Assembly: GCA_964510575.1 (NCBI GenBank)
Contig: CAZECN010000005.1
Span: 18,518 to 82,517, forward strand
Origin: an uncultured Bdellovibrionales bacterium
GTDB taxonomy: Bacteria; Bdellovibrionota_C; UBA2361; SZUA-149; CALKYB01
Direction of reading: 5' to 3'
Length of the DNA stretch: 64,000 nucleotides
Shown: positions 18,901 to 19,758 of the stretch, piece by piece
How positions within the stretch are numbered: the first letter of the stretch is position 1
How the letters are laid out: the number at the start of each line of letters is the position of its first letter
Notes under the pieces: generated by a model
Told to the model about the DNA's origin: nothing
What the model saw: only the letters and a program-made list of their open reading frames with translations
Database searches by the model: none
Translations under genes and position numbers: made by a program

Positions 18901-19647
18901 GTGTCTGAAAAACGTTATCCAATTTCCGATTTAAAAAGAGAGAAGCTTCGTAAGGCAGGAGTTATTGCCTTGGGTAGAGAGCTAAGTGCTTTCGGGAGTG
19001 TTGTTTCCTTGGGATTGGTTTGTGGAGTTTTGTTGAGTAGTGGTTTGGTAGAGAGTGTTATAGAAATTTGGTCTGCGCTTGACCATGATGGTGTCTCGGT
19101 AGCTGTCGTTCTGCAAAAAAGCTTTTTATCAGCGACCAAAGTACTTTTCACATGCTTAACCATAGCTAGTTTTATTTATATTCTTGGGCACTTATTACAA
19201 AGCGGCTTTCTCTTCCAGCCAAGACTTCTGTTCTCAGGAGTCGCTGAGCGCCTTGGGTTTGGACGTCTTTTTAGCTTTAGCTTTACTGAAGGCCTATTTC
19301 TTTTGATTGCCTCTATCGTTTGGGCTGGAGTTAGCTATTTGACGGTAAATTTATTGCTGTATGAACTGAGTGAAATCAAACCAGATAGTTATTTTCAATT
19401 GGATCCCGTGGTATCCAAAGAAGTTTTAGCCGAACGTTTCGATTCTTTGATTGGACAGATTTTCCCGCTTGTATTTGGTGTTGTGGTTCTCGCGAGCTTT
19501 TTGTTTGGTGTCATTATTTTTTTGGTGAGGAAGATTGCTTTTGATGCCAAGCACATGATGACCAGGCAGGAGGTCGAGCAGGAGGCTAAGGAGTATGAAG
19601 TGGATCAAAACATGAAAAGAGCCCAGTATGAGCGGCGCAATTCATGA
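18901..19647 (+). CDS. sctU: SctU/FlhB family switch protein, membrane domain only (no NPTH autocleavage domain)
   Basis: N-terminus EKRYPISDLKREKLRKAGVIALGREL matches the FlhB/YscU N-terminus (EKTExPTxKKLxxARxxGQVxxSxEL). Four TM segments follow. The linker MMTRQEVEQEAKEYEVDQNMKRAQYERR aligns with M(S/T)KQEVKDExKExEGDPxxKxxxRQ and is then followed by a stop. Canonical proteins continue for more than 100 aa through NPTH. Confidence 0.8.
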   Translation: MSEKRYPISDLKREKLRKAGVIALGRELSAFGSVVSLGLVCGVLLSSGLVESVIEIWSALDHDGVSVAVVLQKSFLSATKVLFTCLTIASFIYILGHLLQSGFLFQPRLLFSGVAERLGFGRLFSFSFTEGLFLLIASIVWAGVSYLTVNLLLYELSEIKPDSYFQLDPVVSKEVLAERFDSLIGQIFPLVFGVVVLASFLFGVIIFLVRKIAFDAKHMMTRQEVEQEAKEYEVDQNMKRAQYERRNS

Positions 19648-19758
19648 ACTAGATGGTATTGAAGAAAAGGCCACTTTTTACTGGACTATTATAGTGTTAG
19701 GTTATGGCCTTGAGGATAGCTCAATTTTTGGCAATTTAGACTTAATTAAATAGGTCTT

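Follow-up and report, generated by a model that had tools for sequence, protein, structure and literature searches.

A SctU/FlhB homologue ending before the switch domain in a Tad-linked, needle-less type III secretion-like gene cluster of an uncultured Bdellovibrionales bacterium

Introduction

The window analysed here is a stretch of 64,000 nucleotides from an uncultured Bdellovibrionales bacterium (GenBank assembly GCA_964510575.1, contig CAZECN010000005.1, positions 18,518 to 82,517), numbered from its first letter. It carries Tad pilus-like and type III secretion system (T3SS)-like genes in a single co-oriented cluster, the last apparatus gene of which, sctU, encodes a homologue of the export gate protein SctU/FlhB that stops before the NPTH loop and the globular C-terminal domain, which together form the substrate-specificity switch. 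This truncation is conserved in a family of related proteins, and the protein is probably a complete and naturally short SctU.

Proteins of the SctU/FlhB family have an expected length of approximately 350 aa. The C-terminal domain (SctU_C) docks the early substrates, which are rod, needle or hook subunits, together with the ruler, and cleavage at NPTH permits the change of substrate class after completion of the needle or hook, with the contribution of the domain to gating, apart from switching, still debated. To our knowledge, NPTH autocleavage of SctU/FlhB is treated as universal in type III secretion. An initial reading of the window from its letters alone (hereafter the sequence-only reading) had noted that the gene stops early and proposed either that the C domain is encoded elsewhere or that the machine works without a switch, leaving room for a decayed remnant or a strain-specific pseudogene.

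The short SctU/FlhB homologue

The gene in question is as follows.

18901 to 19647, plus strand: SctU/FlhB homologue, gate-integral part only, recognised by its N-terminal motif, four helices, SctU_L loop and linker

The open reading frame (ORF) begins with GTG, has AGGAG 9 nt 5′ of this start and encodes 248 aa up to a TGA at 19645-19647. The protein matches Pfam PF01312 (Bac_export_2, the FlhB/HrpN/YscU/SpaS family) with E=2.7e-18 and 66.7 bits against a gathering score of 24.4, the match covering positions 2-235 of the 335 in the model and leaving the final 100 or so (236-335) unmatched. A Kyte-Doolittle scan identified four hydrophobic segments (approximately 27-57, 74-100, 123-154 and 179-216), and the linker MMTRQEVEQEAKEYEVDQNMKRAQYERR quoted previously was found in place. 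The sequence-only description of a 248-aa ORF with an N-terminal motif, four transmembrane segments, a linker and a TGA at 19645-19647 is thus in keeping with the PF01312 match, the hydropathy and the reading of the ORF. The gene lies directly 3′ of sctR-sctS-sctT, with the same order in five related loci (L001 and L005-L008), and the family-defining elements are all present, namely the N-terminal motif, four hydrophobic helices with a loop joining the second to the third, and a linker behind the fourth. Scores against the NCBIfam models TIGR01404 (SctU; 43.7 against a cut-off of 358 bits) and TIGR00328 (FlhB; 43.6 against 349.25 bits) fall below both equivalog cut-offs and are equal, such that the protein is neither clearly of the injectisome type nor clearly of the flagellar type. 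Likewise SctV, encoded in the same cluster, scores 511 bits against hrcV and 482 bits against FlhA, both under the equivalog cut-offs, so that, by profile score, the system reaches the equivalog thresholds neither for injectisome nor for flagellar families.

The protein ends 29 residues past the M of the MTR in the linker, approximately 18 residues short of the canonical NPTH position, and contains neither an NPTH loop nor a globular C-terminal domain. That the stop precedes the NPTH domain, as first read, was therefore confirmed by the unmatched PF01312 positions and by the distance from the linker, which in full-length relatives reaches NPTH only at +47 to +50. The gate-integral part is complete, and the chain stops within helix one of the cytoplasmic domain. 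Public annotation calls these short proteins "export apparatus switch protein" though the switch is absent.

Over its whole length, a profile built from the short proteins aligns with FlhB (approximately residues 12-250) and SpaS (8-236) in solved export-gate complexes; in YscU_C constructs it matches only the first 30 or so residues, which form the linker part. Invariant or nearly invariant positions lie in the N-terminal motif (P7, K12, L16, R17 and G20), in the loop following helix 2 (Q100) and in the linker (H218, M220, R222, E224, E226, E228 and E231). AlphaFold2 (AF2), run with a 65-sequence family alignment, predicts an all-helical protein (pLDDT 89.9, pTM 0.76) in which residue 6 bridges residue 220, bringing the two conserved motifs together. 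FlhB_TM forms an integral part of the gate in the FliPQR-FlhB complex, with FlhB_L wrapped around the closed pore and the N terminus touching FlhB_CN beneath the gate aperture, and SctU_N completes the SctRST gate (Kuhlen et al., PMC7064499). The predicted bridge between residues 6 and 220 matches this contact of the N terminus with FlhB_CN. A Foldseek search with the model returned FlhB chain 6s3l_K at the top with E=1.7, which is not significant, and membership of the SctU/FlhB family rests for this reason on sequence profiles.

Conservation of the truncation

Searched exhaustively with phmmer, 1.84 billion cluster representatives yielded 77 hits at E<=1e-3, of which two are pieces of the window protein. 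Another six are full length (344-365 aa), and it is these that carry NPTH or its equivalent 47 to 50 residues past the M of the M-T/S-R linker motif, while 67 sequences, counting that of the window, terminate 21-55 residues (median 30) past the M of MTR. The short family was revealed by this exhaustive search and not by word-index searches, which found a single relative (P0001) when queried with one protein and ten when queried with the family profile. Of two pattern scans of genome collections, the first found nothing and the second found one genome, a Bdellovibrionales metagenome-assembled genome (MAG). The alignment of orthologues from related genomes suggested in the sequence-only reading accordingly gave a clear answer, the truncation being conserved in P0001 and approximately 65 further representatives.

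P0001 shares 51% identity with the window protein and ends at the homologous residue (...QYERSVG). Its locus, L001, is syntenic on both sides of the gene and into a housekeeping flank encoding PMT_2, DUF4124, RNase PH, Ham1, DnaJ-like and BipA proteins, and the stop codon and closely placed next gene were checked there as elsewhere. In the DNA or gene tables of L005 (the MAG Bdellovibrionales bacterium HKST-UBA19), L006, L007, L008 and GCA_041443065.1, sctU is followed by a stop codon with the next gene 4-215 nt away. The GC content of the related loci ranges from 42 to 58%, a spread which implies that the short-SctU trait is old.

When the N-terminal parts were placed in a rough neighbour-joining tree (midpoint root, no support values), all 66 short SctU proteins of this type form one group separate from every full-length protein, and four other short proteins join flagellar FlhB. 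Among the flagellar forms, P0064 (L012, 8001-8834) is a 277-aa FlhB that stops after the linker, from an organism of 65.6% GC, and its gene forms part of an operon of ordinary flagellar composition (FliF, G, H, I, N, O, Q, R, FlhB, FlhA, FlhF, FlhG and FliA); no FlhB_C was found within ±8 kb of it in L012. P0064 and the other short FlhB proteins grouping with flagellar forms indicate that truncation arose more than once, independently of the clade described here. In GCA_041443065.1, which holds the most divergent of the Tad/T3SS clusters (SctV 39% identical), SctU has 194 aa and a 131-aa protein occupies the SctT position, lengths that suggest a further reduction of the gate proteins.

Sequencing error, frameshift or pseudogene

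Between the sctU stop codon and the next gene at 19759 lies a spacer of 111 nt (19648-19758), or approximately 37 codons, and read-through of the TGA would add four codons before another in-frame TGA. A C domain of over 100 aa could therefore not be regained through a simple frameshift. Four contigs, independent ENA and Logan assemblies among them, encode exactly the same 248-aa protein, and a 95%-identical fragment from another sample (P0003) has the same ending, ...QYERRNS. Together with P0002 and P0088, P0003 belongs to a set of variants at 95-98% that represent close strains. The region 19600-19760, singled out at the outset as a place to look for frameshift errors, hence gives no indication of one. 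The expectation that close orthologues might be full length, which would have made the gene a strain-specific pseudogene, was refuted in that P0001 and the rest of the family stop at the homologous position.

A 41-codon ORF (19628-19753) overlapping the spacer does exist, as first reported. Its proposed identity as a decayed remnant of the C domain was rejected, the ORF not being conserved (its L001 counterpart has 21 codons only) and giving no match to the FlhB_C profile. Within the spacer a 13-nt block, TTATAGTGTTAGG (19689-19701), is kept in L001 at about 10833-10845, the rest of the spacer having diverged. The block includes TATAGT, at which a consensus promoter scan called no site. Scans of 18700-21500 for promoters and terminators found nothing beyond the shuffled expectation, leaving the spacer with neither a promoter-like site nor a plus-strand terminator-like site.

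Search for a separate C domain

A hidden Markov model of FlhB_C was built from the six full-length hits and two further sequences, and was run with all filters off against the window in all six frames and 13 other loci (291 kb), which extend approximately ±10 kb around sctU or sctV. The model recovered the positive control, the full-length SctU of L009, at 3.8e-37, and found nothing below E=3 elsewhere in the window or the 13 loci. The two proteins encoded downstream of sctU were considered as diverged forms of SctU_C and rejected, hhalign giving probabilities of 0.08% (the 168-aa protein at 19759-20265) and 1.45%. The 168-aa protein has no Pfam or NCBIfam match, and the sequence-only view of the gene at 19759 as unrelated to sctU thus holds. 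The suggestion that the C domain is encoded elsewhere fails for the window and for the loci with short SctU; for the rest of the genome it is weighed below.

The Tad and T3SS-like cluster

The genes preceding sctU are listed below.

159 to 935, plus strand: TadZ/CpaE-like AAA_31 protein (weak Pfam AAA_31; the ORF listing may have truncated its 5′ end)
1248 to 1433, plus strand: Flp-type prepilin of 61 aa, ...KG/ASMLEYCLLAALISVVAI... (from the sequence; Flp_Fap at the same position in L010 and GCA_041443065.1)
1807 to 2739, plus strand: RcpC/CpaB-like Tad protein (Pfam RcpC, E=1.2e-21)
2822 to 4351, plus strand: CpaF/TadA-like secretion ATPase (Pfam T2SSE, E=1.1e-32)
4380 to 5399 and 5401 to 6324, plus strand: TadB-like and TadC-like platform proteins (Pfam T2SSF, E=3.3e-12 and 6.5e-07)
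6476 to 8680, plus strand: SctV/FlhA-family export gate protein of 734 aa (Pfam FHIPEP, E=1.1e-165)
8735 to 11380, plus strand: Ser/Thr-kinase-like and HEAT-repeat protein of 881 aa (HEAT_2 above and Pkinase just under the gathering score)
11402 to 12793 and 13021 to 14142, plus strand: two FHA-domain proteins (Pfam FHA, Yop-YscD_cpl; kept in all syntenic loci)
14352 to 15275, plus strand: SctJ/FliF-family inner-membrane ring lipoprotein (Pfam YscJ_FliF, E=6.3e-10)
15319 to 15546, plus strand: 75-aa protein of unassigned function, between sctJ and sctO (59-85% identity across six loci)
15665 to 16141, plus strand: SctO/FliJ-like stalk protein (Pfam FliJ, E=5.7e-09; YscO weak)
16156 to 17214, plus strand: SctQ/FliN-like protein (Pfam FliMN_C, E=7.9e-12)
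17211 to 17888, plus strand: SctR (Pfam FliP, E=5.7e-50)
17889 to 18158, plus strand: SctS (Pfam Bac_export_3, E=1.1e-05)
18168 to 18887, plus strand: SctT candidate, polytopic, of 239 aa (from its position between sctS and sctU)

The Tad genes (159-6324) run uninterrupted and in the same orientation into sctV at 6476. The same order, with the Tad part included, is found in L010 (a 1.87-Mb contig of a Bdellovibrionota MAG), L011 and GCA_041443065.1, the TadZ-like orthologues of which (418-422 aa, with AAA_31) occupy the same position. The motif of the 61-aa protein is one that we take to be that of a Flp pilin. The kinase/HEAT gene occupies the same position in L001, L003, L005-L007, L010 and L011, and the FHA domains of the two proteins at 11402-14142 resemble the cytoplasmic domain of SctD. 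No Pfam or NCBIfam match was obtained for the SctT candidate of the window and its L006 orthologue matches Bac_export_1 weakly, indicating an unusual divergence of SctT at this locus. Across the clade SctV keeps its full length, with identities of 39-83%, and MAGs under the labels Bdellovibrionales, Bdellovibrionota, Oligoflexia or Deltaproteobacteria account for the named relatives among its best 120 hits. P0196, an FlhA-like hit at 36% identity, stands alone among unrelated genes and was set aside as uninformative.

Among the cluster proteins compared, the 75-aa protein shows the highest conservation, SctU being 24-51% identical in the same comparison. Searches of Pfam, NCBIfam, PDB sequences and Foldseek gave no match for the 75-aa protein, and a single-sequence AF2 model predicts a small helical bundle (pLDDT 71). 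A resemblance to FliG_N was considered and found no support in a PDB profile search or in Foldseek run on the AF2 model.

Two further genes follow sctU.

19759 to 20265, plus strand: small protein of 168 aa, candidate substrate or partner of the TPR protein (from a six-orthologue alignment)
20278 to 20673, plus strand: TPR protein of 131 aa resembling the class II T3SS chaperones SycD/LcrH/PcrH (Pfam TPR_19)

The 168-aa protein has a variable, low-complexity N-terminal part and two conserved motifs, P-x-s-x-LLP-x-x-G-x-L and E-x-s-M-x-x-Q-x-L-x-W-x-S, which appear in the window as the invariant motifs PLSILLPRIGDL... and ...ERSMIQQVLDWLSMG. Its hydrophobic-x-hydrophobic-x-x-P pattern is reminiscent of the chaperone-binding motif of translocators. 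The best NCBIfam match of the TPR protein is LcrH_SycD (E=7.7e-09), at 35 bits and so below the cut-off of 104.8 bits, and a PDB profile search aligned it with SycD (2vgy) over its full length (E=9e-05) and with PcrH (8e-05). The pair follows sctU in six loci, including L008 where only sctRSTU are still together, and the two proteins may be a substrate and its chaperone. Beyond the cluster (21129-23524) lie genes for a 110-aa protein (minus strand), a 292-aa protein (minus strand) with a weak match to sigma-70 region 2, and a 259-aa sigma-70-like protein with regions 2 and 4. These three genes follow the cluster in all syntenic loci, and their products may be dedicated regulators.

Components not found at the locus

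Nearly all ORFs of at least 120 aa in the window were compared with Pfam, together with scanned small ORFs of the cluster, a procedure by which very divergent small proteins could be missed. Neither the secretin SctC, the needle SctF, the rod SctI, the ruler SctP nor translocators were found in the window or in the gene tables of relatives (L001, L006, L007, L010, L011 and GCA_041443065.1), in keeping with the sequence-only remark that there is no ruler or needle gene here. No match to SctN or SctL (ATP-synt_ab and FliH families) was found in the window or the syntenic loci examined, and the sole ATPase of the cluster is the Tad CpaF-like T2SSE protein despite the presence of a SctO/FliJ-like stalk protein. 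FliG, FliM, rod, hook and filament genes, MotAB and FliO are likewise missing from the window, in contrast to the genuine flagellar locus L012. The locus therefore has the defining set of neither an injectisome nor a flagellum; it does have the basal body and gate genes without secretin, needle or translocon that characterise a needle-less T3SS*, and an association with a Tad-like pilus that is genetic only.

Comparison with known systems

The nearest described system is the T3SS* of Myxococcus xanthus (mxan_2434-2464), which like the cluster described here comprises a basal body without secretin, needle and translocon (PMC12075869, PMC10433427, PMC12428579). Shared components are SctD-like/FHA, SctJ, SctQ and SctRSTUV proteins, LcrH-like TPR chaperones, FHA proteins and a Tad-like pilus. 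In Myxococcus the Kil Tad-like pilus recruits the needle-less T3SS* (PMC12075869), the two acting in contact-dependent killing and lysis of prey (PMC12075869, PMC10433427). The Tad and T3SS-like genes occupy separate loci in M. xanthus, whereas here they form one contiguous, co-oriented cluster, with a kinase-HEAT gene inserted after sctV unlike in the M. xanthus T3SS*. SctN, SctL and SctI, which are part of the Myxococcus-type definition, were not detected in the cluster. SctU here is without a C domain, the length of the M. xanthus SctU being outside the comparison. The best 120 SctV hits include no protein from Myxococcus, the named ones belonging to Bdellovibrionota/Oligoflexia MAGs, and the names Bdellovibrionales, Bdellovibrionota and Oligoflexia hint that the lineage may be predatory.

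The 'Myxo' non-flagellar T3SS of Abby and Rocha (2012; PMC3459982) is similarly deep-branching, from a former deltaproteobacterial lineage, without secretin, SctF, tip and translocon, conserved and probably functional. 'Myxo' loci differ in lineage and gene content, containing an ATPase and an inner-rod gene unlike the cluster here, and neither Tad linkage nor truncation of SctU is described for them (PMC3459982).

The N-terminal motif, the four helices, the SctU_L loop (LQxxFLF), the linker (H-x-M-T-R-x-E-x-E-x-E) and the position of the gene after sctT are shared with canonical SctU/FlhB proteins (YscU, EscU, SpaS and FlhB; 6S3L, 8AXK). Compared with these, the proteins described here end approximately 29 residues past the M of MTR, without the beta-1 strand, NPTH and the globular C domain of some 90 aa. 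The TPR protein resembles SycD/LcrH/PcrH in its size of approximately 130 aa, its all-TPR composition and the location of its gene beside that of a small partner, but scores far under the equivalog cut-off, and its partner is no recognisable translocator.

In the literature searched, which covers the field incompletely, there is no mention of a SctU without a C domain or of a single Tad-T3SS cluster in Bdellovibrionota. Four features set the present system apart from the closest ones: the fused Tad/T3SS cluster, the failure to detect genes for an ATPase complex or rod at the locus, the kinase/HEAT gene and the SctU without its switch domain.

Interpretation of the short SctU

The explanation that we favour, and consider fairly probable, is that SctU is complete, functional and naturally short, that this form is ancestral to a large Bdellovibrionota/Oligoflexia-type clade and that it serves a needle-less, Tad-linked machine which, having no early substrates, has nothing to switch. 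Such a machine would build no needle, rod or hook and would have neither early substrates nor a length signal. With no needle, rod or ruler there would be one substrate class and nothing to switch, so that the switch domain would have become dispensable and disappeared at the clade's base, with selection continuing to maintain the gate-integral half of SctU. Substrate choice would then fall to SctV and the SycD-like TPR chaperone, with timing falling to the kinase/FHA proteins and the Tad module. The homology of SctU, its end point and the conservation of that end point, the lack of a C domain nearby and the make-up of the cluster are shown by the sequences; that the machine exports protein, that no C domain acts in trans and that the chaperone and kinase play these roles is what we infer. 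Of the two options offered by the sequence-only reading, a machine without a switch is thus the better supported, by truncation across a deep clade and by the lack of a needle, rod or ruler gene, with a C domain encoded elsewhere standing as its rival.

Several points weigh against this explanation. All members of the family are metagenome-derived or MAG sequences, and the visible DNA amounts to 64 kb here and approximately ±10 kb per relative, such that an FlhB_C elsewhere could supply the domain. The short FlhB P0064 sits in a normal-looking flagellar operon, and a short FlhB alone does not imply a switch-less machine. The absence of SctN and SctL from the cluster raises the question of whether the module is a working exporter. 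Work by Minamino and Macnab in 2000 is reported to have found FlhB_C necessary for secretion in general, and in the flagellar and injectisome systems studied SctU_C/FlhB_C is likewise needed for secretion generally, beyond switching (PMC3640470). Given this need in the systems studied, loss of the C domain is not obviously neutral.

Of the other explanations, a split arrangement is the one most deserving of attention, in which the switch domain would be a separate polypeptide encoded outside the visible regions and acting in trans with the short SctU, either as a stand-alone FlhB_C/FlhX-like protein or as the C domain of a flagellar FlhB. There is precedent in that the FlhB_C homologue FlhX (HP1575) can partly stand in for FlhB_CC in Helicobacter pylori, according to a preprint (bioRxiv 10.1101/2021.08.29.457346, citing Pallen 2005, Wand 2006, Smith 2009). 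Such FlhX/HP1575-type proteins and the short flagellar FlhB forms show that FlhB can occur as two polypeptides, one for its N part and one for its C part, and P0064 belongs to a flagellar operon, where a switch is presumably still needed. However, FlhB_CN is retained in the H. pylori precedent, no FlhX-like partner was found near any member of the clade, and the short flagellar forms group with full-length FlhB rather than with this clade. No FlhB_C was found in any frame of the window or the related loci, where every other component clusters. The short proteins moreover end approximately 10 or more residues ahead of the beta-1 strand that precedes NPTH. In the crystal structures of EscU, SpaS, YscU and FlhB_C, the cleaved C fragment is held via this strand, and its absence from the short proteins makes the usual docking of a C fragment unavailable. 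A split arrangement is on this evidence unlikely, while keeping an appreciable chance.

The T3SS-like module might instead be a relic, decaying or no longer exporting and kept by its linkage to the Tad genes, with the short SctU as part of the decay. The cluster is without SctN, SctL, secretin and needle, its divergent member has a still shorter SctU (194 aa) and SctT (131 aa), and Myxococcus T3SS loci were once annotated as relics (PMC3459982). Against this, gene order and intact ORFs have been kept though SctU is 24-51% identical and GC content ranges over 42-58%, SctV has remained full length at 39-83% identity across the clade, and the analogous Myxococcus T3SS* functions in prey lysis (PMC12075869, PMC10433427). 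The conserved motifs of SctU and its high-confidence, co-evolution-driven AF2 model also argue for purifying selection, and decay of the module appears improbable. Least credible, to the point where we attach almost no weight to it, is the idea that 19600-19760 holds a frameshift, a strain-specific pseudogene or an error of sequencing or assembly, for which only the general expectation of a SctU of approximately 350 aa can be cited. It is opposed by the identical protein in independent assemblies, by the same end point in the 51%-identical orthologue and the approximately 65 further cluster representatives, and by a spacer that is too small for the domain and an ORF within it that is not conserved. 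The orthologues in relatives stop at the same place and are not full length, on which ground a pseudogene was rejected.

Implications for type III export

The naturally short SctU that we favour raises the wider possibility of an undescribed, deep-branching class of type III export in Bdellovibrionota/Oligoflexia-type bacteria, fused to Tad, with no needle, secretin, ruler or ATPase gene at the locus, a gate-only SctU and no switch at all. We put this forward tentatively, judging its chances to be a little short of even. If true, the clade would represent a natural experiment showing that the export gate needs no more of SctU than SctU_N to be completed and to operate, and the cluster would be genomic proof that Tad pili and a needle-less T3SS form one machine. 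A clade that keeps the gate half of SctU and drops the switch half would mean that the two roles of the protein have been separated in nature, with the prediction that a machine handling a single class of substrate needs only SctU_N.

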